Source: a virus
Lineage: Duplodnaviria; Caudoviricetes
Length of the DNA: 64,000 nt
IMG/VR virus record: IMGVR_UViG_3300027749_000034
Strand: one strand, 5' to 3'
The position numbers were made by a program, and so were the translations under genes. Of this stretch, positions 995 to 14,469 are shown one piece after another. Position 1 is the first letter of the stretch, and each line of letters opens with the position of its first letter. The notes beneath the pieces were generated by a model that worked only from the letters and a program-made list of their open reading frames with translations, did not search any database and was not told the DNA's origin.

Positions 995-1264
995 ATGTTA
1001 TCATTTATCAAGAATCTTTTTGGAGCAAAGCCAGCAACTCAACTTGAAGTAGAAGTTCGCGCTGAAGCACCATACAAAGTGCCAGAACCAGCGGCCACTA
1101 CACCAATTCCATTGGTTGTAGAAGCACCAGTAATTATCCCTGTTGCAGGCCTAATGTTGCCAGTTGAAGGCGCAGGCGAGGTTGCTGTACCAAAAGCAAA
1201 AAAAGCCGCGCCTGCTAAAAAACCAGCAGTGGCCAAAAAGCCGCGCACTCCTAAGGCAAAGTAA
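995..1264 (+). CDS. Small Ala/Pro/Lys-rich protein with histone-H1-like basic tail
   Basis: ATG 995 preceded by AGGAAG; C-terminus PKAKKAAPAKKPAVAKKPRTPKAK. Confidence 0.5.
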   Translation: MLSFIKNLFGAKPATQLEVEVRAEAPYKVPEPAATTPIPLVVEAPVIIPVAGLMLPVEGAGEVAVPKAKKAAPAKKPAVAKKPRTPKAK

Positions 1265-1267
1265 GCC

Positions 1268-2170
1268 GTGTTATTAGACGATCTTGGTCCACGAATCCGT
1301 GTAACAGAAATGTTACAAAAGATTGACGGCCGTTGGGCATTGGTTAACAAGCACAACCCTAAAAAAGTTTTGCAATACTATACCAACGAACGCTGGACCA
1401 AGAAAGTTCAAGGTGTGGTCAACGAAGGCGGAAATGCTTTCAAAGATCCTGTCACAAAAGAACATTTAACAAAGCAAGATGCCAGTACAGAAGAAGTACA
1501 TGCCACAGTCAAAGCATTGGAAAAGCGCATTGGCATTCCATTGTTTAAGAATTTAACCGGTAGTGCAATTTACGCAGGTAAAACCACAGGAGACGGTGAT
1601 GTCAACTTAGATCCTGCTGACTTCATTGATGTAGATCCAGCTGAAGATCCAAAGACTAGTCAGAACCGCTTTCGTGAATGGCTGACAGGTCAGTTGTTGA
1701 AGGCAGGATTTAAAGAACAAGAAGACTTTAAAAAGGGTGGCGACGGCTTGACTGTCAAAGCACCTATTCCAACACCAGGTACAAATGAGTTTTTACAAGT
1801 TGACTTGGACATTGGTGAACCCGGTCAAGGCGAATTCAGTCGCTGGTCTCGTCGTGGAGAGCCCGGTCAAGGCAAGGGCGCATTTAGACACATCTTAATG
1901 AGTGGCATTGCTCGTGCTGTCAATCCCAATTGGAAGTGGAGCTTCAAAGCTGGACTGTTTGATGAAGGATCTGGCAAGACTCTTAGCAGAAGTCCTGATG
2001 AGATTGCAAAGTATCTATTTGGAAGAACTGCCAAGGGCACAGACCTGGACAATATTCAAACAATATTGGCAAAATTAAAACAAACCAGAGCTGACATTTA
2101 TCAAGCAGTGGTAGACAAGGCCAATGACGGTATTGCCAATATGAAATATGACTATAGGCTAGGTCAATAA
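1268..2170 (+). CDS. Pol-beta superfamily nucleotidyltransferase-like protein, possibly virion-packaged
   Basis: LTGS...TGDGDV (GS + DxD) and a later QVDL acidic strand; N-terminal leader ends VVNE|GGNAF, resembling a prohead protease site. Confidence 0.55.
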   Translation: MLLDDLGPRIRVTEMLQKIDGRWALVNKHNPKKVLQYYTNERWTKKVQGVVNEGGNAFKDPVTKEHLTKQDASTEEVHATVKALEKRIGIPLFKNLTGSAIYAGKTTGDGDVNLDPADFIDVDPAEDPKTSQNRFREWLTGQLLKAGFKEQEDFKKGGDGLTVKAPIPTPGTNEFLQVDLDIGEPGQGEFSRWSRRGEPGQGKGAFRHILMSGIARAVNPNWKWSFKAGLFDEGSGKTLSRSPDEIAKYLFGRTAKGTDLDNIQTILAKLKQTRADIYQAVVDKANDGIANMKYDYRLGQ

Positions 2171-3661
2171 ATGTTGTTCAGAGAAATATTCATTGCTGAA
2201 GCAGGTCTAAGTCCAGCAGAATTAAAAAAGTATGATTTCAAGTATTTGAAAGTTCTTCGTGACCTTGGCAATAGCAATACTCCTCTAGAAGTTATTCCGG
2301 CCAAAAGAGAAAAATATGGTAATACTGTCACGCTTACGCCCAACAGCGTTAAATTTTTAAACAAATTTCTTGATCCAGATTCTGATTCCCCAATGCGAGA
2401 TATTGCACCATCCAGCATGGAAGTGTATGTGACTAATGCCAACGGTGAACAAGAAACACAAGTTATTCAAACCAGCTCGTTGTTCAAGAGTGGCGTATTC
2501 AAAGGTACAGAAAATCAAACTGAAGGTGGCAAAGATTATAATGCTGGCCATCTAACAGAACTATTCATGGGTCTTGCGGTAAGTGCCAAGTTCTTTGCCG
2601 CTGGTGCCGCAATTACTAAACAACAGGTCTTAGACATGTTCGGTCATATGGATACACACACTCATGAAAAGACTGTGGAATTTACTACAACAAGAACTAT
2701 TGTATATCCAGAGCGTAATAACAAAAACGATTCATTGTACTTCTCTGCTAAAATTCCCACAGGTAGTTCCGAATCATTTATTAGACAATATAATTCAAGA
2801 AAACTTGGTGAGGATTTAGAAGCATTGCTGTCCAGTGCTGTACTATATTGCAATGAATCTGCATCAGTTAAGACTGCCTGTGAACGAGTATATCAAGACA
2901 AGAACAATAACAGAATTGATATTGCTAGTGATGGCACCGGCGAAGCAACTGCTACCAAAGCAGATTTGACCTTAAAAGTTGATGGTACCAAAATTAACTT
3001 GTTGAGTTTAAAAACTTACAGTACAAAAACACTTGGCCAAATGAGCGGATTAAAGTTTTCTACACTACGAACTTTCTTTGATACTGCATTTGGTTTTGAC
3101 CTTGGCCCATATGGCAACAAATTTGATGAATCGTTGCCCAAAGAGCAACTGGTCAAGAACTTGTTGAATCTATATGATACTGTAATTTTCCCCAGTGTGC
3201 AAGAAACTGTTGAACTTCAGAAGCCCAGCATAGAGTCTGATATTGTTAATAAATTGGCCCGCGCCGCCTTGTTGTTTGCCCGTGGTGAAAAAATGGAAGA
3301 TGTTGAAGTAGTTAAACTCAACGATAAACTTGCAGATGGCGACTATAAAATTTTGAAGTTCAGCGACAACTTGCCAGAAGCTATGAAACATTACGATCTA
3401 GTGGCCAAGAAAGTGGGCACAGGCGATAACGGTCGTACCATCCAAATTTGGGTCAAACCTGCTCCAGGCGAACGAGTCATCAGAAACAGCCACATGTTGT
3501 GCCAATTCCGTAGCCAATTACAAGGCGGCTATATGCGAAACAACTTTGAAACAGGTGCCATATTAGAAGCATTAACAGAGGTTGGTAAAATCGACGTCAA
3601 CAAGCCCGCTAACCGTCAGAGTTCATTGAGCACCAACGCAGACCTAAGAAGTCTAAAATAA
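2171..3661 (+). CDS. Probable internal head protein with PD-(D/E)xK nuclease-like domain
   Basis: N-terminus MLFREIFIAE resembles the T4 capsid-targeting sequence MKTYQEFIAE; NAGHLTE...KADLTL...LSLK fits restriction-endonuclease-fold motifs. Confidence 0.5.
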   Translation: MLFREIFIAEAGLSPAELKKYDFKYLKVLRDLGNSNTPLEVIPAKREKYGNTVTLTPNSVKFLNKFLDPDSDSPMRDIAPSSMEVYVTNANGEQETQVIQTSSLFKSGVFKGTENQTEGGKDYNAGHLTELFMGLAVSAKFFAAGAAITKQQVLDMFGHMDTHTHEKTVEFTTTRTIVYPERNNKNDSLYFSAKIPTGSSESFIRQYNSRKLGEDLEALLSSAVLYCNESASVKTACERVYQDKNNNRIDIASDGTGEATATKADLTLKVDGTKINLLSLKTYSTKTLGQMSGLKFSTLRTFFDTAFGFDLGPYGNKFDESLPKEQLVKNLLNLYDTVIFPSVQETVELQKPSIESDIVNKLARAALLFARGEKMEDVEVVKLNDKLADGDYKILKFSDNLPEAMKHYDLVAKKVGTGDNGRTIQIWVKPAPGERVIRNSHMLCQFRSQLQGGYMRNNFETGAILEALTEVGKIDVNKPANRQSSLSTNADLRSLK

Positions 3662-3702
3662 TCACGCATTATAATAGTAGTTTTAGTTAACTACAACTAT
3701 AT

Positions 3703-3708
3703 TAAATA
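3703..3708 (+). promoter_or_regulatory. Late promoter box TAAATA upstream of csgF
   Basis: T4-like late -10 core in an intergenic region; the motif recurs upstream of many genes in this window. Confidence 0.5.
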
Positions 3709-3743
3709 ATAAGACTGGCACTTTAGCTGGTTATTAGGCGTAC

Positions 3744-4223
3744 ATGAAAAAACTGTTTTTGTTTCTCTTTCTTTCTATTACTATATCCGTACACTCGGCG
3801 GAACTCCAACATTCATTTAATAGTCCAGCATTCAGCGGCGTAGGCTATTCTTCTCATGTGTTGACAATCAAACAGCTTGAAGATCAACAAAAAGAAAAGA
3901 ATAAAAATTTAGTTGATGCACTGAAACAAAAGGCCGAAGCAGACGCATTGAATACACCCAGCGCAAGATTTGTTGCCAATTTGGAAAGTAGAATTTACAG
4001 CCAGTTGGCCAAACAGTTGACTGACAGCCTGTTTGGTGAAGGTGCAACTTGCACAACCAAAGGCATCATATGTGGTACCATTCCTGACATAGGCGGAAAT
4101 ACTATAACATGGAAGCTAGGTGACGGAAGCGACACAGGTTACATTGTTATTAATATTGTAAACATTGCCAATCCAAGTCAAACAACAACCATGAAGGTTC
4201 CCAGTGGAACATTTGCATTCTAA
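3744..4223 (+). CDS. csgF: Curli assembly protein CsgF-like
   Basis: Signal peptide, then ELQHSFNSPAFSG (CsgF N-terminal FxNPxFxG-like motif); directly upstream of CsgG. Confidence 0.75.
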   Translation: MKKLFLFLFLSITISVHSAELQHSFNSPAFSGVGYSSHVLTIKQLEDQQKEKNKNLVDALKQKAEADALNTPSARFVANLESRIYSQLAKQLTDSLFGEGATCTTKGIICGTIPDIGGNTITWKLGDGSDTGYIVINIVNIANPSQTTTMKVPSGTFAF

Positions 4224-5662
4224 TGAAAAAACTACTAGCTCTTATCGTGATTGCGGCAATATTGCAAGGTTGTGCAACCAGTAGTGCCATCAAGGAAAAA
4301 TTAACCGGCAATCAATTTGACGATCCTACTGTTGAAACTAGTAAATTCTTAAAGAAAAAAGAAAATTCGTTGTTGCCTCCTGCTGGTGGCCCAATTCCTG
4401 TGGCAGTCTACAGTTTCAGCGACAAGACTGGTCAACGCAAAAGTGTTACAGGTATTGCCAGTCTAAGCAGTGCTGTGACACAGGGTGCAGAAAGCTATCT
4501 GATCAAAGCACTACAAGATGCCGGCGATGGCAGATGGTTTATTCCAATTGAGCGAGTTGGTATTGATAACCTAATCAAAGAACGACAGATGATTCGTCAG
4601 GCTAGAGAATTATATCAAGGCAAAGAAGCACAGCCATTGCCTCCGATGGTGTTTGCTGGGATCATCATGGAAGGTGGAATCATTGGATACGACTCAAATA
4701 CATTAACTGGTGGTAGTGGCATGCGTGTATTTGGCATTGGTGCAACCACACAATATCAAAGCGATACTGTAACTGTAAATTTAAGAACTGTCAGTGTCAG
4801 CACCAGTGAAATTTTAACCAGTGTCACTGTGACTAAAACTGTGCTGAGTTACATGGACAAGTTGACGCTGTTGAGATTTGTCAACGATCCGGGCATTGCA
4901 GACCCAGCACTGGCGGCCAGCGCCTTGGCAATAGAAGGTGAAATAGGCGGCAGTATCAATGAAAGTATCAACAAGGCCATTGATGTGGCTGTGCAAGCGG
5001 CAGTGATTGAAACAATACAATCCGGTGCTCGTAAAGGACACTGGGGTTTCAAGCAAGAAAAGAAAGAAGTATCAATGCCTCCGCTACCTGCACATATTGA
5101 AAAGCCTGTTACTATTTCTAAGACTGAAGATGCAATAAGCATAGCACCGGTTCCGTTAAAACCTGTTGTAACACCTGCAACAGAAGTTCCAAAAGAGGAG
5201 AAGAAAGATGTCGTGGTTCAAACACAATCCCCCCAAACACCCGCCACCGTTGGCGAATCCGTCAGTGGCCCACCCGCACCGCTCAAGCCCAGCAACGACC
5301 AAGGCCCTGGAGGAGACAAAGCTGAAAGTAAGAGCACCGTCGACGACAGCAAAAATCAAGACAAAGACCAAAAGGTCAACCTAAAAGAAGATGCAACAAT
5401 ATCAACTGGCATAATTCCAAATACTTCATTGGCCACGCCAATTGCTCCTAGGGCTTTGTTTGGACAAAGGATGTTAAAAGAAGATGTGTTTATCTATGCT
5501 GAGCCCACTATTCAATCTGCAAAAAAATGGTGGTTCAAGAAAGGAACTATTATTAATGTTAGAGCACCAGGTCCAGAAGGGTGGTTAAAAGTGACAGATA
5601 ATGAACTCAGAGGTGGTTGGGTTCATACAGATGTACTAGAGGCAGTTACAGGTGTAAAATAA
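4223..5662 (+). CDS. csgG: Curli secretion channel CsgG-like lipoprotein with Pro-rich linker and C-terminal SH3b-like domain
   Basis: Lipobox LQGC; VAVYSFSDKTGQRK, SSAVTQGA, ERVGIDNLIKERQMIR, EGGIIGYDSN and DTVTVNLRTVSV are CsgG hallmarks; about 200 extra C-terminal residues. Confidence 0.88.
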   Translation: MKKLLALIVIAAILQGCATSSAIKEKLTGNQFDDPTVETSKFLKKKENSLLPPAGGPIPVAVYSFSDKTGQRKSVTGIASLSSAVTQGAESYLIKALQDAGDGRWFIPIERVGIDNLIKERQMIRQARELYQGKEAQPLPPMVFAGIIMEGGIIGYDSNTLTGGSGMRVFGIGATTQYQSDTVTVNLRTVSVSTSEILTSVTVTKTVLSYMDKLTLLRFVNDPGIADPALAASALAIEGEIGGSINESINKAIDVAVQAAVIETIQSGARKGHWGFKQEKKEVSMPPLPAHIEKPVTISKTEDAISIAPVPLKPVVTPATEVPKEEKKDVVVQTQSPQTPATVGESVSGPPAPLKPSNDQGPGGDKAESKSTVDDSKNQDKDQKVNLKEDATISTGIIPNTSLATPIAPRALFGQRMLKEDVFIYAEPTIQSAKKWWFKKGTIINVRAPGPEGWLKVTDNELRGGWVHTDVLEAVTGVK

Positions 5663-5700
5663 TTAACATGTAAAATTATTAACATGTTATATTATTAACA
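5662..5700. repeat. Three imperfect 16-bp-period direct repeats (ATTAACATGT core)
   Basis: ATTAACATGT at 5662 and 5678, ATTAACA at 5694, upstream of the curlin gene promoter. Confidence 0.6.
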
Positions 5701-5729
5701 GCGATATTTAATTTTTATGTCGCTTCGCT

Positions 5730-5735
5730 TAAATA
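5730..5735 (+). promoter_or_regulatory. Late promoter box TAAATA upstream of curlin-like gene
   Basis: Intergenic TAAATA, followed by a GGAG SD before ATG 5778. Confidence 0.5.
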
Positions 5736-5777
5736 GATAGCGTAAATTATGGAGTTTAACTCCAAGGGAGATACATT

Positions 5778-6530
5778 ATGACAAATTATAGAGTTTTGTC
5801 AGGAATTATTCTACTACTAGGGGCAGTAGTTGTTCCAACGAGCTTTGCACAGACTGTTTCAACAGGGCCCAACAAGGTTTATATTGAACAGATCGGTAAC
5901 ACAAATACTATAACCATTGAACAAGTTGGTGGTAGTAACAATGTTGGCGGAACTTCGTCCACAGCGCCGGGTAGCACAAATTACGGAACAATTTTTGGTA
6001 GTGCCAACACACTGGCATTAACACAGACCGGTGATGCCAATAACAGCCAATACAACATTAAAGGTAGTACCAACATATACACCAGTACAGTCACTGGCAA
6101 TACTAACTCATCAAAATTGGTAGTTGGCAACACTACTACGCCATCGTTGCGTAATAACTTGACTGAAACGGTACTTGGCAATGCCAATACATTAGATACC
6201 ACAGTTGTTGCAAATGATGTAATTAGTACCATTGCAATTGCTGGTAATACCAATGAAGTCACATCGGTATTACGAAGCAACAGAGGTGCCAGCGATATTG
6301 ACATTGCTGGCAATAACAATAAACTTGACATTGAACAACTTGATGCCGCAGGTGCCAATGGACACTTATTAAAACAAGTAATTGTTGGCGACTATAACTC
6401 TATTGTTACTCAACAACAGGGTATAAACGACACCACTGTTGATTTGAAAACAACTGGCGATCATAATACTATTACAATTAGAACCAGTAGTACTTCAATT
6501 ACATCTCCTAAAACTGCTGTTGCGAGGTAG
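5778..6530 (+). CDS. Curlin-repeat (CsgA/CsgB-like) secreted protein
   Basis: Signal peptide; N/Q/T/G-rich repeats such as NKVYIEQIGNTNTITIEQVG and QQQGINDTTVDLKTTGDHN. Confidence 0.75.
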   Translation: MTNYRVLSGIILLLGAVVVPTSFAQTVSTGPNKVYIEQIGNTNTITIEQVGGSNNVGGTSSTAPGSTNYGTIFGSANTLALTQTGDANNSQYNIKGSTNIYTSTVTGNTNSSKLVVGNTTTPSLRNNLTETVLGNANTLDTTVVANDVISTIAIAGNTNEVTSVLRSNRGASDIDIAGNNNKLDIEQLDAAGANGHLLKQVIVGDYNSIVTQQQGINDTTVDLKTTGDHNTITIRTSSTSITSPKTAVAR

Positions 6531-6532
6531 GT

Positions 6533-7642
6533 ATGGATGTGTTTGCAAAAGCGATTTTATGCTTTGCTATTTTAAATTCTGCTTGTTACGCAGGACCCAC
6601 CATTGGCACCGTCAGTGAAAATAAAGGCCTGGCCTGTGAGATCCTAAGAGGCAAAACTAAACTTACCGGAGTCAAAGGTTCAGATGTAGAGTCTATGGAC
6701 ACATACACCACTGGCGCATGCAGTAGCAATATTGTATTCCGAGACGATACCAAGGTTAAAATCACTGAAAATTCAAAATTGGTAATTGACGACTTTGTAT
6801 TTGATCCAAAGAATTCTGACGCAGGCAAACTAAGCATCAAGGCCGCAATGGGTACTATTCGCTATGCCAGTGGACAAATTGCCAAGGCAAACCCACAACA
6901 AGTGGCTGTTCAAACTCCTACTGCAAACATTGCTGTTCGCGGAACAGACTTTACAATGACCGTGGATGAAACTGGACAAAGTCTAATTGTACTGGTTCCA
7001 AGTTGTAAAGATGAAAAAGATATCAAACAGTTTGAGCTGGCTGAAAATACCTGCAAGGTTGGGCAAATTGATGTGGTCACAGCAGGCGGCCGTGTCACAT
7101 TGACCAAGGCATTTGAAGCTACCTTTGTTATCAGTGCAAGTGTTTCGCCAACAGCGCCGGTCATCATCAATACAGTGGAAAGTAAACTTACCAATATTTT
7201 AATTATTTCGCATCCACAAGAAATTGGCAAGGCCATTGGTATTGCCACTGGTAGAAGCAAGCGAGAAGAGCTAGAAGCTGAAATTGAAGCGGATGCACAA
7301 AAGCGTCTGGCGCAACGAGTTCGAGAAAATGCTGAACAGATTGAAGAAGCCAGAATTATGATATTATCAGAATCTGCTGTCAAGGCCGGCTGTAACCCGA
7401 CCACTTCAGTTTGTGTCGCATGGGACCGGCCTACTGAGTCAGAAGCTGCCAGCAGAGGTCGTGCCATTGCATTTCGTAACACTGAAAATGAACACTACGC
7501 AGAAGTAAAAACTCAAGGCTATAGTTCGAATACATTTGTAACAATTGTACACAATGATGCCAGCGCCAGTACTCTAATTGGCAGTGGCGAAGCAGGTGCC
7601 ACAACTGTTTATATCAAACAGAATGGCGGTATCAAACGATGA
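6533..7642 (+). CDS. FecR-domain periplasmic protein
   Basis: Signal peptide; IVFRDDTKVKITENSKLVID and TPTANIAVRGTDF are typical FecR-domain motifs. Confidence 0.8.
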   Translation: MDVFAKAILCFAILNSACYAGPTIGTVSENKGLACEILRGKTKLTGVKGSDVESMDTYTTGACSSNIVFRDDTKVKITENSKLVIDDFVFDPKNSDAGKLSIKAAMGTIRYASGQIAKANPQQVAVQTPTANIAVRGTDFTMTVDETGQSLIVLVPSCKDEKDIKQFELAENTCKVGQIDVVTAGGRVTLTKAFEATFVISASVSPTAPVIINTVESKLTNILIISHPQEIGKAIGIATGRSKREELEAEIEADAQKRLAQRVRENAEQIEEARIMILSESAVKAGCNPTTSVCVAWDRPTESEAASRGRAIAFRNTENEHYAEVKTQGYSSNTFVTIVHNDASASTLIGSGEAGATTVYIKQNGGIKR

Positions 7643-8778
7643 AATTTTTAATTGCCATAGCGTTCCTATTGGCCGGCTTTGGTAGCTGTAGTAAAGTACA
7701 GGCCACAGGTTTAGCTGATTTAAAATTTGGCCAGGCGCAAATAGCAGATAGTCAATGGAATGTTCAAGCATGTACACAAACAGCAACTTGTCAAATCTAT
7801 AGTACAAACCCAGGCACCGCATATAAGATTCCCTGGACTAGTGGTCAGATACAATGGGCAACAGGTGACTATATTCAATTCCAACCTTATACAAAAGATG
7901 CAAACAATCCTTGGTTGGCTGTACAATTTGATGCCAACGGTGTTGGTAAAACAAACATGGGTATAGGACATATTATTAACATGGGTACAGACTTTTTCTT
8001 TTTTGTAGGCAGTGATAATAATACTGGACAGTTGTTTAGTATGACCAGTGGATTATCCGGATCTGCTGGAGTGACCTGGACTGGTACATTGAATCCAACT
8101 GATGCTCAGGTTAATGCCTATGCCGCTAACGGATCTACTACTCCACTGGCCGCTGGACAAACTGCTGGACCCCCTCCATTGTGCTGTGGTGCTTCGGCAA
8201 CCGCTGTAATAGTTCAAGATACAAACTTTTACAATAGTGTCAACACCTTTATGAATAGAACTACAAACGATGCACAAATCTATGTAGAGCAAATTGGCAA
8301 TAATAATACCATTGTGATTGAGCAGACTGGTACTGCAAACAACCGAATCAGGTATGACGGTAACGGCAATAACAACAGCATTTCTACAAATCAAAACTCT
8401 ACAAATCCATCTGCTTACAATTTTATAGACTTGGGCGTGAATGGGAATGCCAACGCTGTAAACATTACACAGCAAAGTACTGGTGGTGTCAAGGGTGTGT
8501 TGGCCAGGATCAATGACAACAACAATTCATTGATTGTTCAGCAAAAGGACAGTGGCAACCATTATGCTGATGTTGTCCTCAGTGGTGGCAATAAAAATGT
8601 GGACATACTACAGGAAGGATCAGCCGGTCATGCCGCCCGGGTTGGTCTTACAGGAATGCCTGTTGATTTGAGTCTAACACAAAGCGGTAACGGCTTGGCC
8701 AATCAATCATACAGTATACAGTTTAACTGTGCCACCGCAGGTGGCTGTCCTAAAATTATCGTCCAACAGGGCAGATAA
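7639..8778 (+). CDS. Secreted protein with N-terminal beta-rich domain and C-terminal curlin repeats
   Basis: Signal peptide; QIYVEQIGNNNTIVIEQTG, NNNSISTNQ and NAVNITQQ curlin-type repeats. Confidence 0.7.
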   Translation: MKFLIAIAFLLAGFGSCSKVQATGLADLKFGQAQIADSQWNVQACTQTATCQIYSTNPGTAYKIPWTSGQIQWATGDYIQFQPYTKDANNPWLAVQFDANGVGKTNMGIGHIINMGTDFFFFVGSDNNTGQLFSMTSGLSGSAGVTWTGTLNPTDAQVNAYAANGSTTPLAAGQTAGPPPLCCGASATAVIVQDTNFYNSVNTFMNRTTNDAQIYVEQIGNNNTIVIEQTGTANNRIRYDGNGNNNSISTNQNSTNPSAYNFIDLGVNGNANAVNITQQSTGGVKGVLARINDNNNSLIVQQKDSGNHYADVVLSGGNKNVDILQEGSAGHAARVGLTGMPVDLSLTQSGNGLANQSYSIQFNCATAGGCPKIIVQQGR

Positions 8779-8781
8779 GTA
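8776..8781 (+). promoter_or_regulatory. Late promoter variant TAAGTA, 4 nt before ATG 8786
   Basis: No SD between box and ATG; same spacing as several other sites. Confidence 0.45.
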
Positions 8782-8785
8782 ATGA

Positions 8786-9748
8786 ATGAAGAAATTAATA
8801 CGGATTGAAAGAAATCCAAATCCTCTATTTGTCCATTGGAAGCTGACCGACTTCTGTAATCAAGCCTGTCACTATTGCCCAAGCTTTTTGCATGATGGGC
8901 GATTTGCAAAGGGTATCTTGTCCGGCGCAATGACTGCCACTCAAATTATAAATCTATGTGATCGCTTGCTTGATCTAACTCAGGATAGATCAGGCATTTT
9001 AACCGTCCTGGGAGGGGAGCCAACTGTACATGATATGCTTCCAACTATACTTGAAAAATTAAACAATAATTTTGCAATTGAAATTGTAACCAATGGAAGC
9101 AGAGGATTAAGTTGGTGGAAACAACTCAAAGCATTACCACACAAGGTTGCTATATCATTACATCCAGAGTACTATGATGCTACCCAATTTAGAATCAACG
9201 AGCTAGTGGATTTTCTATTAGAAAACAATGTAGCTGTATGTTTCAATTTGATGTGTGATACTGCTAATTGGAATACTGTAATTGATATCTACAATAGTAT
9301 ACGAGATGAATACAAGTGTTTGACCATTCCAACGATAATTACAGATTACCTGAATCAGGGCACAAGGAAATCAATCAAGTACACTGATGACCAAAATCAA
9401 TTTATGGCATCGTTATTATCAACGCTAAAGTTAAAACCAGTCAGCGGGCATTCTGTTAATACAGCAACCTACAATGATGGATCAACTGAAATTGTAAACG
9501 ATCCAAATCTGATTATAAATTCTAAAAATAATTACTTCAAAGGTTGGTCCTGTAGTGCAGGCAGGGATAGTATATCCGTTGATTTCAATGGTGCTATTAC
9601 CGCAGGAATATGCGGAGCAAAACGGTTAGGAAATGCCGCCACTTTCAAATTGAATACCGAAAATCTAATCTGTCCCAAAGATGTTTGCGCCTGTACCGGT
9701 GATGTGGGTCTGTCAAAGTTTGACTTACACCATGAATCTGTGCTATAA
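8786..9748 (+). CDS. Radical SAM protein with C-terminal SPASM/twitch-like Cys cluster
   Basis: CNQACHYC (CxxxCxxC), GGEPT, VTNGSR; C-terminal C...G..C...CPKDVCAC. Confidence 0.85.
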   Translation: MKKLIRIERNPNPLFVHWKLTDFCNQACHYCPSFLHDGRFAKGILSGAMTATQIINLCDRLLDLTQDRSGILTVLGGEPTVHDMLPTILEKLNNNFAIEIVTNGSRGLSWWKQLKALPHKVAISLHPEYYDATQFRINELVDFLLENNVAVCFNLMCDTANWNTVIDIYNSIRDEYKCLTIPTIITDYLNQGTRKSIKYTDDQNQFMASLLSTLKLKPVSGHSVNTATYNDGSTEIVNDPNLIINSKNNYFKGWSCSAGRDSISVDFNGAITAGICGAKRLGNAATFKLNTENLICPKDVCACTGDVGLSKFDLHHESVL

Positions 9749-9749
9749 T
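9720..9749 (+). promoter_or_regulatory. Sigma70-like promoter for adenylate cyclase
   Basis: TTGACT (9720), 18 nt, TATAAT (9744) with TG extension; GAGG SD before ATG 9768. Confidence 0.5.
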
Positions 9750-9767
9750 ACATACTGAGAGGTGAAT

Positions 9768-11813
9768 ATGAAAAACATTCTTAAAAATATACCTGGTCCA
9801 TTAAGTGTGGTTTGGGTCATTATTACAGCCGCATTGTTGATTTTCTTAAAAATTCAAAATCCTGCGGCAGTTGAAAGTCTACAGTTAAAAGGCTTTGACA
9901 CACTATTGGCCAGTGATGCAGTAGAGACCAGCAATGAAGTGGTTGTTGTGGACATTGGTGAAGCCAGTATGGCTCGGCTGGGACAATGGCCATGGGACCG
10001 ACGAGAAATTGCACAGGCAGTAAATCGCATGCGTGAACTGGGTGCCGCTACTGTTGTTATACCAATTCTAATGACTGAAAAAGACAGACTAAATGGGGAC
10101 AAAGATCTAGCCGAAGCACTGGCCAAGAGTCCCAGTGTTATTGCACAAACTCCAACTACACAAAACAAAAAGCCAGATGCTGTTCGACGAGGCGTTGCAG
10201 TGATTGGTGGCGATCCTTACATTTGGTTGTTCAATTGGCCAGGCGCATTGAGTCCGCGGCCAGAACTGGCGCAAAGTGCTAGAGGTGTTGGTACCACTGT
10301 CACTGCTCCTGAAATTGATGGGGTTGTTCGTCGTATGCCATTGGTTGTCACAGTCAACAAGGAATACTATCCAAGTCTTCCAATCGAAGCACTTCGTGTG
10401 TTTACTGGAGAAAAGAGTTATCAAATGAAGATGACTGATGCTGGCGTAGAGAAAGTTCGCATTGCCGGACAGCCTGTGGTTTCTACTGATGCACAAGGCC
10501 GTGTATGGCTACGCTGGAACCGAGAATTTAAACACTATGAGCTGGGTGACCTGAGTCTTAAAGACATAGATCTAAAAGGAAAGATTGTAGTACTGGGTCT
10601 AACAGTTGAAGGACTTGGAGGCATTGTTGCTACACCACGCGGAGAGACATGGGCACATAATTTACAGGCCACAGCAATACAAACACTCATTGATGGTACA
10701 AGTCCAACTCGTCCAGGTTGGGCCACAATGGCTGAGTTGTTGACAATCATTGCTGTTGCGGCCTTGATCATTTTTGCCATGCCACGAGTACCTGTTTGGT
10801 CTGCATTACTTGTGCTGGGCGGCATTGTATATGTGGTAGTCAAAGGTGGCTTGATATTATGGACAGAGTACAGTCAGCTATGGGATATCTATTATGTTGT
10901 ATTTGCCAGTGTCGTATTATACGGGCATGCTCTGTTTGCTAGATTTGTACAAGAGTTTAAGCAGAAACAACAGATTAAGAAACAGTTTGGCACATACCTA
11001 TCGCCAGCCTTGGTTGCCAAATTACAGAAAAATCCTGAACTGTTACAGCTGGGTGGAGACGAGCGTGAACTAAGTATCATGTTCACTGATGTTCGTGGCT
11101 TCACCACTATCTCCGAGCATTATGGCAAGGATGTACAAGGTCTAACTCGAATCATGAATCGTTACATGACTGCCATGACTGCAAAGATCATTGAGAATAA
11201 CGGAACACTTGACAAGTACATTGGCGATGCTCAGATGGCATTCTGGAATGCACCGCTTGATGAGGAACGTCATGCTCACATGGCAGTAAAGACTGCCTTA
11301 GAGATGATGGAGAGTTTAGATGCATTTAATGCAGAAGTTACAGCAGAAGGCGTACCAGCTTTTGGTATGGGCCTTGGGATTAATAGTGCAAGTGTTGTGG
11401 TGGGTAATATGGGATCTGATCAGCGTTTTGACTATACTTGTCTGGGCGACGGTGTTAACCTGGCATCACGCTTGGAAGGACAGAGTAAGAACTACGGCGT
11501 CAGAATTGTACTTGGTCAACGGACTGCGGAGTTGGTTAAGGACACATACCCGGTGGTAGAACTTGACAACATTGCTGTCAAAGGCAAAACACAAGGCGTT
11601 AAGATTTTCACACTGGGCAACACCAATCGCACATTGCACGATATCTATCTAACTGCATACTATCGCGGCGACTGGGCTCGTGCTATCAAATCATGTGAAA
11701 AGTTAATCAAAGAAAACACTGACATTACACATTATTATGAGAATATGTTGGAGCGAATGAAAGAAGGCCTGCCTGCTGAATGGGACGGCACTTACAGAGC
11801 CACAAGCAAATGA
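9768..11813 (+). CDS. CHASE2-domain membrane adenylate cyclase (class III)
   Basis: N-terminal TM; CHASE2 motifs (VVVDIGEAS, GQWPWDR, DGVVRRMPL); three TM segments; catalytic FTDVRGFT, DKYIGDA and GDGVNLASRLE, with Lys and Thr at ATP-specifying positions. Confidence 0.92.
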   Translation: MKNILKNIPGPLSVVWVIITAALLIFLKIQNPAAVESLQLKGFDTLLASDAVETSNEVVVVDIGEASMARLGQWPWDRREIAQAVNRMRELGAATVVIPILMTEKDRLNGDKDLAEALAKSPSVIAQTPTTQNKKPDAVRRGVAVIGGDPYIWLFNWPGALSPRPELAQSARGVGTTVTAPEIDGVVRRMPLVVTVNKEYYPSLPIEALRVFTGEKSYQMKMTDAGVEKVRIAGQPVVSTDAQGRVWLRWNREFKHYELGDLSLKDIDLKGKIVVLGLTVEGLGGIVATPRGETWAHNLQATAIQTLIDGTSPTRPGWATMAELLTIIAVAALIIFAMPRVPVWSALLVLGGIVYVVVKGGLILWTEYSQLWDIYYVVFASVVLYGHALFARFVQEFKQKQQIKKQFGTYLSPALVAKLQKNPELLQLGGDERELSIMFTDVRGFTTISEHYGKDVQGLTRIMNRYMTAMTAKIIENNGTLDKYIGDAQMAFWNAPLDEERHAHMAVKTALEMMESLDAFNAEVTAEGVPAFGMGLGINSASVVVGNMGSDQRFDYTCLGDGVNLASRLEGQSKNYGVRIVLGQRTAELVKDTYPVVELDNIAVKGKTQGVKIFTLGNTNRTLHDIYLTAYYRGDWARAIKSCEKLIKENTDITHYYENMLERMKEGLPAEWDGTYRATSK

Positions 11814-12514
11814 CACAGCAATTGGTCTACGACTTCTCACAACCGCCTACTAGGAATCCGGACTATTTCTTTCCGTTGAGTTTGAAATTGGATCCTGAGG
11901 AAAAGGCCAATTTTATCAATACTGCAATGGTTCAGCATAGTGCTAAATTTAAAGGTACAGGAATTGGATTGAGCAATGTTGGCAATGCTGATGATTTTTT
12001 TCCAAAGACAATTGCTCAAACAAATGAGTTTGTTAAACCATTGAAACTTAAAGTTCGCAAGGTTACTTTATTTTTAAGCGACGGAAGTCAGACCAGTTGG
12101 GTAATACATTGCGATGGAGTGCGATATAAGAAGCGGCCTGTAATATTGGAAGCTCGGCTGAGTTACTATGAAATTGCCGAAGAGCCCGGTGCAATACGAT
12201 GGTGGAACAATCTAGCAACTACACTAAAGGTACACCCTGCAAATGAGTATTCTCAAGAAAGAATCAACTGTCAGGCTGATGTGGCTGATCTATTGCGCGA
12301 AGATAAAATTACTTGGGATAAAATTCCGCAGCCTGCATTTAGCGTAGTAACTTCTGCGCCCAGCGCCATACTTAGAACCAACAGGCCGCATCATGTGATA
12401 CAAGGACCAGGACTACGAGTAACCATCAGCTGTCAATTAGTACATGACTCTGATGAAGACCCGTTTGGTGTCTGGGAACATATACAAAGAAACATACACC
12501 TGTTAGGTGCGTAA
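11810..12514 (+). CDS. Hypothetical protein, 2OG-Fe(II)/cupin-like
   Basis: IHCDG (HxD) and distal PHHV; ATGA overlap with the cyclase stop; resembles 63309..63839. Confidence 0.45.
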   Translation: MTQQLVYDFSQPPTRNPDYFFPLSLKLDPEEKANFINTAMVQHSAKFKGTGIGLSNVGNADDFFPKTIAQTNEFVKPLKLKVRKVTLFLSDGSQTSWVIHCDGVRYKKRPVILEARLSYYEIAEEPGAIRWWNNLATTLKVHPANEYSQERINCQADVADLLREDKITWDKIPQPAFSVVTSAPSAILRTNRPHHVIQGPGLRVTISCQLVHDSDEDPFGVWEHIQRNIHLLGA

Positions 12515-13207
12515 ATGGGCCAGTCCGAAGAATTTTAGTATTGTAATATACATCCATCCCGCATCAAATTCCCACCAACGAAGACTCAGTCTAGGGTTAG
12601 CAGGATCCAAATGATGGTTATTATGCAGGCATTCCCCACCAACAACAATATCCCAAGGAACAATGTTTCTACTGTGATCTTTAGTTTCGCCATTTCTATA
12701 TCCCCACCAATGTCCAATGCCGTTAATGACGCCGGCCGCCCAGAAAGGTATCCAGAGCATCTGAACACCCCAGATTAACACACCCCACCAGCCAAATATC
12801 ACTGTGTTGAGCACAAAGAGAATGCCAATGCCAAGTCTACTGTGAGGAGTGTATATGTTGTGCTCCATCCAATCAGAAGGAGTACCAACACCGTATGTAT
12901 CAACCATATCTTTATCTTTTGATGCTTCATGGTATAGTCCTGCTCCTCGAAAAAATACCTGTCCAATTCCATACACATGTGGACTATGCGGGTCACCGTC
13001 TTGTTCGGTGAATCTATGATGTTTGCGGTGTACAGCTACCCATTGCTTGGTGACCATGCCTGTGGTCAACCATAATATGGCTCGCATGAAATGTGCTACC
13101 GCAGGATTGAATGTGACTGATCTATGTGCTTGACTGCGGTGAAGATATAGTGTTACACAGGCTATGGTGATGTGTGTCATCACCAGTGTATATATTAGTG
13201 CTGTCAT
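12503..13207 (-). CDS. Acyl-lipid/acyl-CoA delta-9 fatty acid desaturase
   Basis: Three His boxes HRSQAH, HRKHH and HNNHH; TM segments; WWEFDAGW tail typical of DesC/OLE1. Confidence 0.92.
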   Translation of the reverse strand: MTALIYTLVMTHITIACVTLYLHRSQAHRSVTFNPAVAHFMRAILWLTTGMVTKQWVAVHRKHHRFTEQDGDPHSPHVYGIGQVFFRGAGLYHEASKDKDMVDTYGVGTPSDWMEHNIYTPHSRLGIGILFVLNTVIFGWWGVLIWGVQMLWIPFWAAGVINGIGHWWGYRNGETKDHSRNIVPWDIVVGGECLHNNHHLDPANPRLSLRWWEFDAGWMYITILKFFGLAHLRT

Positions 13208-13518
13208 TAATCTTTGACCGCTTCTTTGAATTTCTTTTCTGCTTCAAGGTCAACTTTATGTGCTTCCATTACACGATCACCTTCAATGATTTTGCCACGC
13301 AGGTGCAGGGTTGTGTTGACCTTTTGAGTTAGTCTAATTAAATCATTGTCCAGCATACGCACACGATCTATTAGCGCAATTAATGTGGTGTTGGCTTCGC
13401 TCAACACTGGTTTAATTTCCGTTGTGGCCCATTGCCACACATAGTAAATTAGATATCCCATGCCGCCAGCGGCAACTATAGGAAATCCATACTTGTTAAT
13501 TAATTCTGCTACATCCAT
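13207..13518 (-). CDS. Small membrane protein, paralog of 14078..14359
   Basis: GGAG SD; GFPIVAAG TM segment followed by coiled coil DRVRMLDNDLIRL. Confidence 0.6.
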   Translation of the reverse strand: MDVAELINKYGFPIVAAGGMGYLIYYVWQWATTEIKPVLSEANTTLIALIDRVRMLDNDLIRLTQKVNTTLHLRGKIIEGDRVMEAHKVDLEAEKKFKEAVKD

Positions 13519-13519
13519 T

Positions 13520-13939
13520 TTATACTCCAATTAAATGATCTTCTTCATGATCAACACGGGGGCAAACATGTGACCATGTCAATAAAAATTCCAGCAATTC
13601 TGGTCCTTCTGGAATCCAGAATCTTGTGCGATTTAAATGGGCTTCAAATTGAATCTTGTTGGTTTTAATCCAACGAATTACTTCAACAAATTCCGCATCT
13701 CTTGTATATACTGCAAATTGATATGACTTATCAGAATTATATACAACTTCTCGGGCACCGTCTAATACAAAAGCAGTCAATGGATCTACTTTGATCAGGG
13801 CTTTCTTGCCATTGCGGTCAACAACTTTCCAGTGGTCGCCTACTTGCCAGCCCAGTTTGTCAGTGTCTAACTCTGGGTCTGGCAACATGTAGTTTGGGTT
13901 TAAATCCCAGTTGTAGTCATAGTACAGCATTAGAAACAA
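13520..13939 (-). CDS. Hypothetical protein with C-terminal FW...FLLTWS motif (small Trp-rich family member)
   Basis: ORF track; ends RFWIPEGPELLEFLLTWS, similar to the 33-35 kb family. Confidence 0.55.
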   Translation of the reverse strand: MFLMLYYDYNWDLNPNYMLPDPELDTDKLGWQVGDHWKVVDRNGKKALIKVDPLTAFVLDGAREVVYNSDKSYQFAVYTRDAEFVEVIRWIKTNKIQFEAHLNRTRFWIPEGPELLEFLLTWSHVCPRVDHEEDHLIGV

Positions 13940-14076
13940 AGTCCTATTAGTAAACCAACAATGAAGGCACCAATTACAGCACCAACCATTTCATTATGTT
14001 TCCAAATTGGTTGATTTCTCAAGTAGTCTTGCGTGTCGGCCGGCAAGCTATCAAACCAAGATTCCCATTTTCCCAT
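13930..14076 (-). CDS. Small protein with C-terminal TM helix
   Basis: MGKWESWF...GAVIGAFIVGLLIGLCF; start placed immediately after the upstream stop. Confidence 0.5.
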   Translation of the reverse strand: MGKWESWFDSLPADTQDYLRNQPIWKHNEMVGAVIGAFIVGLLIGLCF

Positions 14077-14077
14077 T

Positions 14078-14359
14078 TTAGTCTCTTCTAGCATCGTTCT
14101 TGCCGTCTGCTCTGGCAATACGGTCCACATCAGGACTGAGTCCCAATGCATTTGATACTATTGTGTCAATACGAATAACATCGTGATTCATTGTCTTAAC
14201 ACGATTGTCTAGCGCACCAATGATGCCCTTTAATCCATTCACACTGGAAGTCACACCGGCTAAGATGAACTTGAGTGTTAAAAATACAAAGTAGCCGCCG
14301 GCCATTGCCGCGGCAATTGGAAAGCCAACTTCAGCTACTAATTTGAAAAATTCACCCAT
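14078..14359 (-). CDS. Small membrane protein, paralog of 13207..13518
   Basis: GFPIAAAMAGGYF TM segment, then LDNRVKTMNHDVIRID. Confidence 0.6.
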   Translation of the reverse strand: MGEFFKLVAEVGFPIAAAMAGGYFVFLTLKFILAGVTSSVNGLKGIIGALDNRVKTMNHDVIRIDTIVSNALGLSPDVDRIARADGKNDARRD

Positions 14360-14384
14360 CTTGGTAACCCCTTAATTATATGCA

Positions 14385-14390
14385 TATTTA
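14385..14390 (-). promoter_or_regulatory. Late promoter TAAATA for the minus-strand membrane/desaturase operon
   Basis: TATTTA on + strand; AGGGG SD before ATG 14359. Confidence 0.5.
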
Positions 14391-14463
14391 AAACTCATTA
14401 TAAAAACATTAACAGCTACGATTATGATAAGTAATATGAGTGACTATAATTATCCAAAACCCA

Positions 14464-14469
14464 TAAATA
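14464..14469 (+). promoter_or_regulatory. Late promoter TAAATA, 5 nt before ATG 14475
   Basis: CATAAATACACCTATG; no SD. Confidence 0.6.

Follow-up and report, generated by a model that had tools for sequence, protein, structure and literature searches.

A phage module joining curli secretion genes to a FecR-domain protein and a CHASE2 adenylate cyclase

Why a phage should carry curli secretion genes next to a FecR-domain protein and a receptor cyclase, and whether these genes form one unit, is the question raised by IMG/VR record IMGVR_UViG_3300027749_000034, of which 64,000 nucleotides (the window) were analyzed. The carrier, a jumbo phage from fresh water, has a DNA polymerase closest to those of Agrobacterium phage Atu_ph07 and Sinorhizobium phage Phosso. 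A preliminary description of this DNA listed a contiguous set of curli, FecR, curlin, radical SAM, and CHASE2 cyclase genes, and all seven were found on the plus strand at positions 3744 to 11813, in the order csgF, csgG, curlin, FecR, curlin, radical SAM, and cyclase. The export signals that it assigned to the secreted parts were also located, with N-terminal hydrophobic leaders on four proteins (CsgF, both curlins, and the FecR protein) and a lipobox (LQGC) on CsgG. By sequence, the curlins and the FecR protein are Sec-exported.

The linkage of the curli genes, FecR, and the cyclase is not due to chance. Among the CsgG-seeded phage loci, 42 extend 9 kb or more downstream, and each of these carries both FecR and the cyclase. 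The gene order was kept in 41 of them, the exception being locus L211, in which the cyclase gene is inverted. The order csgF-csgG-curlin-FecR-curlin-cyclase was seen in each IMG/VR locus seeded by the cyclase that had roughly 6 kb or more of upstream sequence, as well as in Pelagibacter phage HTVC008M and phage Melnitz, and the phage cyclases formed one side of a branch in a tree with 77 bacterial cyclases. These results support the view that the genes make up one conserved phage module. The module is not novel, however. The same arrangement (CsgF-CsgG-CsgA/B-FecR-CsgA/B-adenylate cyclase) was described in SAR11 podo- and myophages by Wittmers et al. in 2022 (PMC9599517), where the cassette was also expressed in ocean metatranscriptomes, and the present module is a copy of this published viral type VIII secretion (curli), FecR, and adenylate cyclase cassette. 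The preliminary description named only csgF and csgG for some marine T4-like phages, but the complete cassette had already been published with FecR and the cyclase in it. Two features go beyond the ocean-phage cassette, namely a dedicated triple DNA operator before the fiber genes and an early-type promoter that serves the cyclase separately.

The first two genes encode the pore. The csgF gene (3744 to 4223, plus strand) encodes a secreted cap or adaptor of the CsgG channel; the protein is 159 amino acids long, starts with a signal peptide, and carries SFNSPAFSG as its N-terminal motif. It matched Pfam CsgF with 31.9 bits (cut-off, 25.8) and phrog_35372 with an E value of 6e-32, and a profile of 24 phage homologues placed E. 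coli CsgF (6l7a and 6lqh) at the top of the PDB matches (E value, 0.014) over the motif FQFRNPNFGG. The csgG gene (4223 to 5662, plus strand) encodes an outer-membrane lipoprotein channel with a core at residues 1 to 280, which matched Pfam CsgG (E value, 1e-42) and the solved E. coli CsgG (PDB 3x2r; E value, 3e-45, residues 5 to 279). The core is followed by a linker rich in Pro, Thr, and Lys and then by an SH3b-like domain (residues 420 to 472), whose SH3_3 score of 21.5 bits is below the cut-off of 27. This extension is common to 11 related loci, with matches extending to query residue 472.

Two curlin-repeat proteins with signal peptides were retained in nearly all module members. Curlin 1 (5778 to 6530, plus strand; 250 amino acids), a secreted curlin-repeat beta-solenoid, is likely the major fiber subunit. 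As single sequences, both curlins matched Pfam below threshold (E values, 0.005 to 0.009), but a profile built from 39 phage homologues of curlin 1 matched the solved curlins 8c50 (E value, 7e-14) and E. coli CsgA 8enq (E value, 4e-5), and its AF2 model was an all-beta solenoid with a pLDDT of 83. Curlin 2 (7639 to 8778, plus strand; 379 amino acids) carries a globular beta-rich head (residues 24 to 165), a disordered linker (178 to 209), and a C-terminal curlin solenoid (211 to 377). The AF2 model of curlin 2 showed a beta-solenoid with a pLDDT of 79. The top structural match of the C-terminal domain was 8c50 (Z score, 15.8), ahead of SufD 1vh4 (15.2) and 8enq (15.0); other beta-solenoids tie at a Z score of about 15. 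Some relatives of curlin 2 keep the tail and have a different head, either discoidin (PF00754 and PF22633) or CBM_4_9, and others are only about 87 amino acids long; the heads are swappable and lectin-like. The head of curlin 2 contains conserved cysteines, and its passage through the narrow CsgG channel would require unfolding.

Between the curlin genes lies the gene for the FecR-domain protein (6533 to 7642, plus strand; 369 amino acids), which has a signal peptide, a conserved FecR-type core (residues 25 to 230), a coiled-coil-like middle, and a conserved C-terminal tail with an ITIKQ-like end. It matched PF04773 (E value, 1.8e-10) and phrog_37870 (E value, 1e-68), and in an alignment of 41 sequences the core was conserved and Gln363 of the tail did not vary. 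The curlin-like appearance of this tail is weak, with an hhalign probability of 9% over 14 columns. The protein differs from E. coli FecR in that a cleavable leader replaces the cytoplasmic anti-sigma domain and membrane anchor.

In bacteria, FecR-domain proteins recur together with CHASE2 receptors, both in the loci of the nearest cyclases and in the literature. A FecR-domain gene was found within 10 kb in 36 of the 79 loci of the nearest bacterial cyclases and directly upstream of the cyclase in 19 of 61 loci, and ABC and HlyD type I secretion genes adjoined the cyclase in 33 loci. Of five bacterial FecR proteins scanned, four were 650 to 1700 amino acids long, three of these with cadherin-, Ig-, or RTX-type domains, and most of the others were 1000 to 3000 amino acids by ORF length. 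The Afipia order, for example, is FecR-adhesin, ABC, HlyD, cyclase, MBL-fold protein, and cNMP-binding protein. Because the nearest bacterial cyclases sit in such operons of type I secretion and giant FecR-headed adhesins, an exported surface fiber with FecR and a CHASE2 cyclase is a recurring design. Previous studies described a FecR-CHASE2 pair in a Burkholderia operon with a LysM/FecR protein and a CHASE2 kinase (PMC5192318). In S. meliloti, the CHASE2 cyclases CyaD1, CyaD2, and CyaK work upstream of the cAMP regulator Clr, whose targets include the FecR-domain protein SMc02177 (PMC5498481), and the signal of these cyclases is sensed via an outer-membrane protein (PMC13001267).

The last gene of the module encodes a CHASE2 receptor adenylate cyclase of 683 amino acids (9762 to 11813, plus strand), probably starting at the ATG at 9768. 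It consists of a first transmembrane segment, a CHASE2 domain (residues 32 to 321), three further transmembrane segments, a cytoplasmic class III domain (436 to 616), and a C-terminal tail of about 65 residues; the four transmembrane segments put the CHASE2 domain in the periplasm. The protein matched Pfam CHASE2 (E value, 5e-44), Guanylate_cyc (class III; 1e-19), phrog_35576 (2e-229), and the PDB adenylate cyclases 6fht (3e-33) and 3r5g (7e-29). The catalytic residues, previously noted as intact, are all present (D443, D489, K485, T559, N566, and R570) and invariant in 41 phage homologues. By sequence, the cytoplasmic class III domain has every residue needed for cAMP synthesis, and the Lys/Thr pair indicates ATP as the substrate. 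The cyclase is the best-conserved sequence of the module, with a mean column identity of 64% and a nearly invariant catalytic core. A sigma70-like promoter of its own, as stated in the preliminary description, was found directly before the cyclase at 9720 to 9749 on the plus strand (TTGACT-18-TATAAT with an extended TG; 11 of 12 matches). The element TTGAC(T/A)-17-TAnnnT occurs at the same place in near relatives (L003 to L007 and L009 to L014), in which the upstream genes differ, and is absent from the distant marine clade. Because this promoter is the cyclase's own and is conserved, it is plausible that the cyclase is made earlier than the fiber genes, in line with the sensor-before-fiber timing proposed earlier.

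In contrast to these genes, the radical SAM gene (8786 to 9748, plus strand; 320 amino acids) does not belong to the set in which it was originally included. The enzyme matched PF04055 (E value, 1e-9) and named subfamilies below threshold only. No homologue was found in 160 related IMG/VR loci; the gene occupies the same slot only in the closest relatives (L243), and homologues at 43% identity adjoin baseplate and ligase genes elsewhere in phage genomes. In relatives, an amidoligase, a glycosyltransferase (GT4), or genes of unknown kind stand at this place. The site is a variable cargo slot, and the radical SAM gene in it is a passenger outside the core of the module.

We also examined the regulatory elements of the curli genes, to which late boxes had been ascribed. 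Two variants matching the T4 late consensus at seven of eight positions do exist, ATTAAATA at 3701 to 3708 (plus strand; 36 nucleotides before the csgF start codon) and CTTAAATA at 5728, but no canonical TATAAATA was found upstream of the curli genes or in the region. A different element lies upstream of the curlin genes at 5653 to 5700, where three abutting palindromic boxes of 16 nucleotides (TGTAAAATAATTAACA, TGTAAAATTATTAACA, and TGTTATATTATTAACA) make up a putative operator that a dimeric regulator of the CRP-family type could bind. The box consensus, TGTTAAAATTTTAACA, rests on 45 boxes taken from 16 different loci. Abutting TGT-N10-ACA pairs occurred in 31 loci (among 164 phage loci, 2.6 Mb), in 29 of which they lie 109 to 243 nucleotides upstream of the curlin 1 start; a further pair lies just past csgG on a contig that stops before curlin 1 (L223). 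In 30 loci the triple operator is confined to the curlin promoter, and a related genome of 285 kb has no such site apart from the one at the curlin genes. Just 3' of the boxes is a putative promoter-like pair, TTTAAT-N17-TAAATA (5707 to 5735, plus strand), followed by a small hairpin (5751 to 5763) and a ribosome-binding site. The form T(T/A)TAAT-N17-TAAATA was counted, with its spacer of 17 nucleotides, in the window and in L172, L180, and L232, and similar hexamers are visible in the remaining box-bearing loci. The operator frame is that of the S. meliloti Clr box, TGTTN8AACA; strict Clr boxes were not enriched upstream of bacterial FecR-adhesin genes. No phage cNMP-binding protein was found in the related 285-kb record, so any cAMP effect depends on a host receptor. 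The reader of the operator could instead be a phage regulator unrelated to cAMP.

From these findings we infer fiber display coupled to a relay from FecR to the cyclase. Our preferred explanation, to which we assign a probability of about 0.45, is a displayed curli fiber with FecR-CHASE2 sensing, cAMP output, and two regulatory layers. In the infected Gram-negative cell, curlin 1 would be exported through CsgG and CsgF as a surface fiber, which curlin 2 would join by its curlin tail, presenting its variable, lectin-like head. The FecR-domain protein would stay periplasmic as a partner or ligand of the CHASE2 domain and may replace the missing gate CsgE at the pore, and cAMP synthesis would be set by the state of export or of the fiber. 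The cyclase could be made first from its own host-type promoter, and the curlin-FecR-curlin genes are placed behind the triple CRP-family-type operator, which a host cAMP receptor protein could read. Counting against this model are the lack of CsgE, CsgC, and CsgD homologues, the unfolding that the curlin 2 head would need, the dependence of any cAMP effect on a host receptor, the lack of Clr box enrichment before the bacterial FecR-adhesin genes, the possible reading of the operator by a phage regulator, and the weak curlin-like look of the FecR tail. In addition, Melnitz-infected cells showed no clumping by cytometry or transmission electron microscopy (Buchholz et al. 2022, PMC9004378). The same study proposed from structure modelling and synteny that the Melnitz genes form a lysis-timing pore, in which CsgG and CsgF would be a gated outer-membrane pore (pinholin- or secretin-like) and the curlin-like proteins, FecR, and the cyclase would be its accessories or regulators rather than makers of a fiber. 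Although the missing gate protein CsgE fits this proposal as well, a bare pore needs no curlins, and two are kept that match solved curlins by profile and fold. Moreover, the curlin genes in particular have a dedicated operator, and no lysis gene was identified beside the module in the window, in which the four flanking ORFs scanned had no Pfam or named PHROG match. We consider a lysis pore distinctly unlikely.

Alternatively, the cyclase may be the point of the module, with cAMP reprogramming host CRP-type regulation or nucleotide signaling, FecR and CHASE2 sensing a cue from the envelope (superinfection or damage to the cell wall, for example), and curli as separate cargo. The cyclase's own promoter and high conservation would suit such a role, the FecR-CHASE2 pair also occurs without curli genes in bacteria, and insertions between the curli part and the cyclase cost neither. 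However, the csgF/csgG linkage is complete in every judgeable locus, across phage lineages that otherwise share little, and bacterial members of the same cyclase clade are again tied to an export system and a surface substrate. Together, the complete phage linkage and the bacterial export association suggest that export and sensing are functionally connected, and we regard separate cargo as rather unlikely. Uptake of nutrients or cofactors through an ungated CsgG pore, with FecR as an iron-citrate-type regulator, was suggested by Zaragoza-Solas et al. in 2020 (PMC7029224) and by Wittmers et al. in 2022 (PMC9599517) and agrees with the absence of CsgE. It is very unlikely here, since it leaves the curlins and CsgF unexplained and the FecR protein lacks the anti-sigma domain and membrane anchor of E. 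coli FecR. Moreover, no ECF sigma factor or TonB-dependent receptor was seen among the genes examined beside the FecR gene, and the bacterial FecR relatives are heads of secreted adhesins beside CHASE2 cyclases, not iron systems. Finally, the curlin-repeat proteins might be fibers or decoration of the virion; beta-solenoids are common in tail fibers and spikes, several beta-solenoids are among the weaker fold matches of curlin 2, and in HTVC008M and Melnitz structural genes are found close to the module. Virion assembly takes place in the cytoplasm, whereas the curlins, CsgF, and FecR carry export leaders and CsgG a lipobox, and bacterial curlins are the best sequence and fold matches, which makes a virion role extremely improbable.

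Next, we compared the module with named systems. Its genes and their order are those of the pelagiphage viral type VIII secretion system, (HK)-CsgF-CsgG-CsgA/B-FecR-CsgA/B-adenylate cyclase (PMC9599517, PMC7029224, and PMC9004378), and its proteins are 38 to 47% identical to those of HTVC008M and the Methylophilales phage Melnitz (curlins, 23 to 29%). CsgE is absent in both, and the nearest cellular cyclases are alphaproteobacterial, as in the phylogeny of PMC9599517. In contrast, the carrier here is a jumbo phage whose polymerase is Atu_ph07-like, neither one of the Kyanoviridae nor an HTVC023P-type pelagiphage, and the SH3b-like tail of CsgG, the globular head of curlin 2, the radical SAM insertion, the sigma70-like promoter of the cyclase, and the triple operator of the curlin genes set the present module apart from these. 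Judged from a literature search, the pelagiphage papers do not mention CHASE2 in the main text, and they read FecR as an iron regulator. The E. coli csgBAC/csgDEFG system shares the CsgG channel, CsgF with its N-terminal channel-binding motif, and subunits with Q-x-G-x-N type repeats and a beta-solenoid fold. The phage module differs in having no homologues of CsgE, CsgC, or CsgD, in its longer subunits (250 amino acids, and 379 with the head), and in including a FecR protein and a cyclase, neither of which is encoded in bacterial curli operons (PMC9599517).

On the sensing side, the Burkholderia "BiofilmReg" operon (response regulator, LysM/FecR, CHASE2 histidine kinase, and DUF4136), linked to biofilm formation (PMC5192318), likewise has a secreted FecR directly upstream of a CHASE2 receptor; it differs in its histidine kinase output, the LysM on FecR, and the absence of secretion genes. 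The alphaproteobacterial CHASE2 cyclases (S. meliloti CyaD1, CyaD2, and CyaK; Bradyrhizobium, Afipia, and others) have the same domain layout at 33 to 38% identity over the full length, with a FecR gene alongside and a tie to export machinery and to the surface protein that it exports. There, the FecR domain forms the head of a giant cadherin/RTX-type adhesin with type I export, whereas in the phage it is a separate protein with a type VIII system. Clr and NsrA, an outer-membrane protein, belong to the S. meliloti system, and the phage operator fits the frame of its cAMP-dependent Clr box.

Seven genes were found head to tail on the plus strand at 3744-11813 of the window. Pfam and PHROGs identified CsgF (3744-4223), CsgG (4223-5662), a FecR-domain protein (6533-7642), a radical SAM enzyme (8786-9748), and a protein with CHASE2 and class III cyclase domains (9762-11813), and profile and fold comparisons identified two curlins (curlin 1, 5778-6530; curlin 2, 7639-8778). 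CsgG matched PF03783 (E = 1e-42) and the solved E. coli CsgG (E = 3e-45), and its N terminus carries the lipobox LQGC, as in the outer-membrane lipoprotein channel; its tail, a long linker with an SH3b-like domain, is common to some relatives. CsgF scored above the Pfam cut-off. A profile of phage CsgF homologues ranked CsgF chains at the top (E = 0.014) and aligned FQFKSPAFSG with FQFRNPNFGG, the N-terminal channel-binding motif that E. coli CsgF inserts into the CsgG barrel. Both curlins, which fell under the Pfam threshold as single sequences, are predicted to fold as beta-solenoids. A profile of 39 curlin 1 homologues matched the solved curlins 8c50 (E = 7e-14) and E. coli CsgA 8enq (E = 4e-5). 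For the C-terminal solenoid of curlin 2, to which the VIA-align comparison was confined, 8c50 was the top structural match (Z = 15.8) and 8enq the third (Z = 15.0), tied with other beta-solenoids, and Foldseek against the PDB gave no significant match for curlin 1 or curlin 2. N-terminal export leaders were present on CsgF, both curlins, and the FecR protein, so that the profiles, folds, and leaders together indicate secreted curlin-repeat subunits. These results bear out the preliminary description, which had proposed a contiguous curli secretion set joined to a FecR protein and a CHASE2 cyclase, with signal peptides or a lipobox on the secreted parts. No ORF or Pfam match for the CsgE gate, the CsgC chaperone, or the CsgD regulator was found in 3700-11813; the absence of CsgE has been reported for the phage module too (PMC9599517). 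Curlin 2 is modular. Its curlin tail is conserved and its head varies between relatives, being a beta-rich domain in the window and a discoidin or CBM domain in relatives, and the head is nearly gone in the marine clade, where the whole protein has about 87 amino acids.

Pfam and transmembrane prediction give the cyclase the layout of a class III (IIIb-like) enzyme with a CHASE2 sensor, with a periplasmic CHASE2 domain between membrane segments and a cytoplasmic catalytic domain; its four hydrophobic segments lie at residues 13-31, 322-340, 348-366, and 378-396. D443, D489, K485, T559, N566, and R570 align with solved cyclases and were invariant across 41 phage homologues. We take these to be the two metal-binding Asp, the substrate-binding Lys and Thr/Asp, and the transition-state Asn and Arg. 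The earlier assignment of intact catalytic residues was thus upheld. A PADLOC match to a Pycsar cyclase (E = 2e-24) was weaker than the matches to adenylate cyclases and was read as generic superfamily likeness.

The order csgF, csgG, curlin, FecR, (second) curlin, and cyclase on one strand is that of the pelagiphage module, and the Pelagibacter phage HTVC008M and the Methylophilales phage Melnitz are annotated with the identical order. Their tblastn identities to the window were 41% for the cyclase, 42 to 43% for CsgG, 45 to 47% for FecR, 38 to 39% for CsgF, and 23 to 29% for the curlins, and homology was further indicated by membership of the module proteins in PHROG families 35372, 20175, 37870, and 35576. 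A survey seeded with the cyclase returned 582 IMG/VR contigs with a cyclase relative; among the best 80 of these 582, which were read, every locus with enough upstream DNA carried the colinear set. Independent seeding with CsgG gave 42 loci that extend 9 kb or more downstream, and all 42 contained both FecR and cyclase genes, with the cyclase on the opposite strand in one of them (L211). The synteny survey that had been called for therefore showed the cyclase linked to the curli genes in relatives, and no unlinking was seen. The module is real, conserved, and functional-looking, and the preliminary description assigned its genes correctly, with two exceptions, the radical SAM gene and the late boxes.

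The cassette itself is already published, and the copy in the window is a further member. The curli cluster was described in pelagimyophages by Zaragoza-Solas et al. 2020 (PMC7029224), CsgG/CsgF of Melnitz were discussed as a possible lysis-timing pore by Buchholz et al. 2022 (PMC9004378), and the cassette in full, with FecR and the adenylate cyclase, was described in SAR11 podo- and myophages by Wittmers et al. 2022, who also covered its ocean-wide distribution, expression, and alphaproteobacterial affinities (PMC9599517). The main texts of these three papers do not name the CHASE2 domain, and FecR is read there as an iron regulator. Curli genes are absent from Pelagibacter and from the OM43 host of Melnitz (PMC9599517, PMC9004378). 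New here are the candidate operator, the cyclase promoter, the modular make-up of curlin 2, and the CsgG tail, along with the bacterial parallel. One bacterial entry, a metagenome-assembled genome labelled Bacteroidetes (L083, RGCF01000015.1), contains a full phage-type module with a cyclase 51% identical to that of the window; the contig is probably of phage origin and was placed in a bacterial bin.

The phage differs from the published carriers in kind. Its T4-type family B DNA polymerase (36581-39229) is closest (46 to 48%) to the polymerases of two jumbo phages, Sinorhizobium phage Phosso and Agrobacterium phage Atu_ph07. Curlin 2 has an identical copy on a 293-kb contig, a contig of 285 kb is the nearest relative in IMG/VR, and freshwater and lake metagenomes from several studies contain nearly identical DNA. 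These matches mark it as a jumbo phage of fresh water rather than a pelagimyophage of the sea. No near-identical DNA was found in cultured phages, and no cultured jumbo phage of the collection searched carries the curli-cyclase module. The window contains no tRNAs, and no Rfam family was found in 1-16000. In three lake metatranscriptome runs, short contigs 90 to 97% alike covered csgF, csgG, both curlins, and the cyclase; they belong to relatives, and the RNA libraries they come from may contain DNA. Some contigs end at the triple boxes described below. Because the assembly most likely broke there at a repeat, no transcription start was inferred from these ends.

The radical SAM gene had been counted as part of the set, which the survey contradicts: no homologue was found in 160 related IMG/VR loci, the gene occupies the same position only in the closest relatives, and more distant homologues adjoin baseplate-like and ligase genes on other phage contigs. 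Relatives have other genes between curlin 2 and the cyclase, namely amidoligase-like, glycosyltransferase, or unknown ones, and the radical SAM gene is a passenger in this slot. Its PADLOC match to viperin covers the common core only and was taken as generic superfamily likeness. Directly before csgF, a 496-residue ORF (2171-3661) without a Pfam family belongs to an unnamed PHROG (phrog_3560) and also precedes csgF in at least 12 relatives, including L004-L007, L164, L208-L210, L220, and L243. It travels with the module in the clade of the window and is not a recognisable histidine kinase; the histidine kinase gene that precedes csgF in the podophage form was not found here, and the myophage form has not been described as always having it (PMC9599517). 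After the cyclase, as in the near clade, a 244-residue ORF (11780-12514) has a 34-nt overlap with the cyclase stop, and translation may in fact begin at its residue 11, an ATG. No Pfam family matched this ORF, the one lead, a weak one, was to 2OG-Fe(II)/PhyH oxygenases (score, 0.80), and it was not counted as part of the module.

The history of the cyclase was considered separately. In numerous relatives (L168, L172, and L180-L185 among them), CsgG was 52 to 78% and FecR 53 to 64% identical to the window, and the cyclase only 36 to 43%. Multiple acquisitions of the cyclase were considered because some modules with CsgG of 65 to 78% identity have cyclases of only 36 to 43% identity. In the tree, however, every phage cyclase fell on one side of a branch with the bacterial ones opposite, which is compatible with a single origin. 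By these identities, the cyclase has either diverged far beyond its neighbours or been swapped between phage lineages. In one locus (L212), the cyclase match spans residues 355-683 only, and CHASE2 may be missing.

Two regulatory elements were characterized. A sigma70-like promoter lies before the cyclase at 9720-9749, with 11 of 12 matches and an extended TG. The near clade keeps a similar element in this position despite a different upstream gene. The marine clade, in which the second curlin gene directly adjoins the cyclase or overlaps it, lacks the element. The separate cyclase promoter of the preliminary description was accordingly retained; its late boxes at the curli genes are near-matches only, and the canonical T4 late promoter is absent from the region. 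The second element is a candidate operator of three abutting 16-nt palindromes at 5653-5700, across the csgG stop. Downstream of it come a T(T/A)TAAT-N17-TAAATA pair, a hairpin, and then the start of curlin 1, and its TGT-N10-ACA palindromes upstream of a promoter have the frame of CRP/FNR operators. Two or three boxes, with the consensus TGTTAAAATTTTAACA, are kept in 16 distinct loci in which the sequence has diverged and the frame is fixed. Abutting box pairs occurred in 31 loci across 2.6 Mb of phage loci, 30 of them between csgG and curlin 1, and a related 285-kb genome has a single such site. Six loci without the triple boxes (L004, L005, L008, L011, L177, and L197) have a different conserved element, TGCATAGATCTTGCTTGT, in the spacer between csgG and curlin 1; in four of these loci, an inverted repeat, GTGTGTGG/CACACACC, comes after it. 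There seem to be two or more interchangeable versions of the curlin promoter region.

From gene identities, topologies, and linkage, we infer a mechanism to which we assign a probability of about 45% as a whole. Curlin 1 would be exported as a fibre via CsgG/CsgF, and curlin 2 would attach to it by its tail and display its binding head. The periplasmic FecR protein would be the partner of CHASE2, perhaps standing in for CsgE, so that the state of export or of the fibre sets the cAMP output, and cAMP may act back on the triple operator through a host CRP-type protein. Infected cells would thereby gain a predicted surface-fibre export system. FecR has been read as an iron regulator in the published accounts. 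E. coli FecR works within FecIRA, with a cytoplasmic anti-sigma domain, a membrane anchor, an ECF sigma factor, and a TonB-dependent receptor. The phage protein has a cleavable-type leader and no further transmembrane segment, its Pfam match is to the periplasmic FecR domain only, and no sigma factor or receptor gene was seen beside its gene, either in the window or in HTVC008M and Melnitz as annotated. On these features it has a domain in common with FecR but is neither a FecR-type regulator nor an iron regulator. Two observations were counted against our mechanism: Melnitz-infected cells do not clump (PMC9004378), and no cNMP-binding protein was found in a related 285-kb phage record. Complex prediction for CHASE2 (residues 32-320) with the FecR core (residues 22-235), using 41-row alignments for each, scored 0.00 (mark, 0.32), which speaks neither for nor against the pairing.

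A more ambitious version, in which the phage runs a closed circuit, is considered unlikely. The cyclase would be made early from its own host-type promoter, raising cAMP; a host CRP/Clr-type receptor would fill the triple operator and turn on the curlin-FecR-curlin genes; and FecR, at the pore or tied to the fibre by a curlin-like tail, would report export or surface contact to CHASE2. For such a tail, the curlin HMM gave weak C-terminal matches in many FecR proteins, and profile-profile comparison of the FecR tail with curlin gave 9% probability over 14 columns, which makes a curlin repeat there a lead only. We know of no ligand for the CHASE2 domain; if true, the closed circuit would provide the first defined protein ligand for this orphan domain. 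The operator and the cyclase promoter could show whether the phage times fibre production by host cAMP signalling, and together with the bacterial parallel they make the function of the module easier to test. Aquatic phages carry the module in large numbers, the cyclase alone being present on more than 580 IMG/VR contigs.

Finally, the module was compared with bacterial systems. The nearest cellular cyclases are alphaproteobacterial (33 to 38% identity, full length), and no curli genes lie near them. A FecR-domain gene occurs within 10 kb of the bacterial cyclase in 36 of 79 loci and ends just upstream of it in 19 of 61. The bacterial FecR-domain ORFs are mostly very long (about 1000 to 3000 amino acids), three of the five scanned contain cadherin-like, Ig-like, and RTX-type domains, and ABC and HlyD type I secretion genes adjoin the cyclase in 33 loci. 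In Afipia birgiae (L089, 1-14000), one operon encodes, in this order, a 1427-residue FecR/cadherin protein, an ABC exporter, the HlyD adaptor, a CHASE2 cyclase, an MBL-fold protein, and a cNMP-binding protein, and similar layouts occur in about 30 further alphaproteobacterial loci. In a Burkholderia operon, a LysM/FecR protein precedes a CHASE2 kinase (PMC5192318). In S. meliloti, the CHASE2 cyclases CyaD1, CyaD2, and CyaK signal via the cAMP regulator Clr, whose targets include the FecR-domain gene smc02177 (PMC5498481); these cyclases sense their signal via an outer-membrane protein (PMC13001267), and a CyaD1 plasmid with CHASE2 deleted gives constitutive cAMP (PMC5498481, PMC13001267). The phage boxes have the frame of the S. 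meliloti Clr box, TGTTN8AACA, a likeness of frame that makes them a candidate operator only; six strict Clr boxes were found in 1.39 Mb of bacterial loci, none in promoter position. Phages and bacteria thus have one design in common, in which a fibre or adhesin exported to the surface is combined with the machine that exports it, a FecR domain, and a CHASE2 cyclase. CHASE2 is repeatedly paired with FecR-domain proteins of exported fibres or adhesins, both in the phages and in the bacteria closest to them, and these proteins are a concrete candidate for its partner. If the closed circuit proposed above is real, one FecR-CHASE2 device would monitor exported surface fibres both in bacteria, as type I adhesins, and in phages, as type VIII curli.
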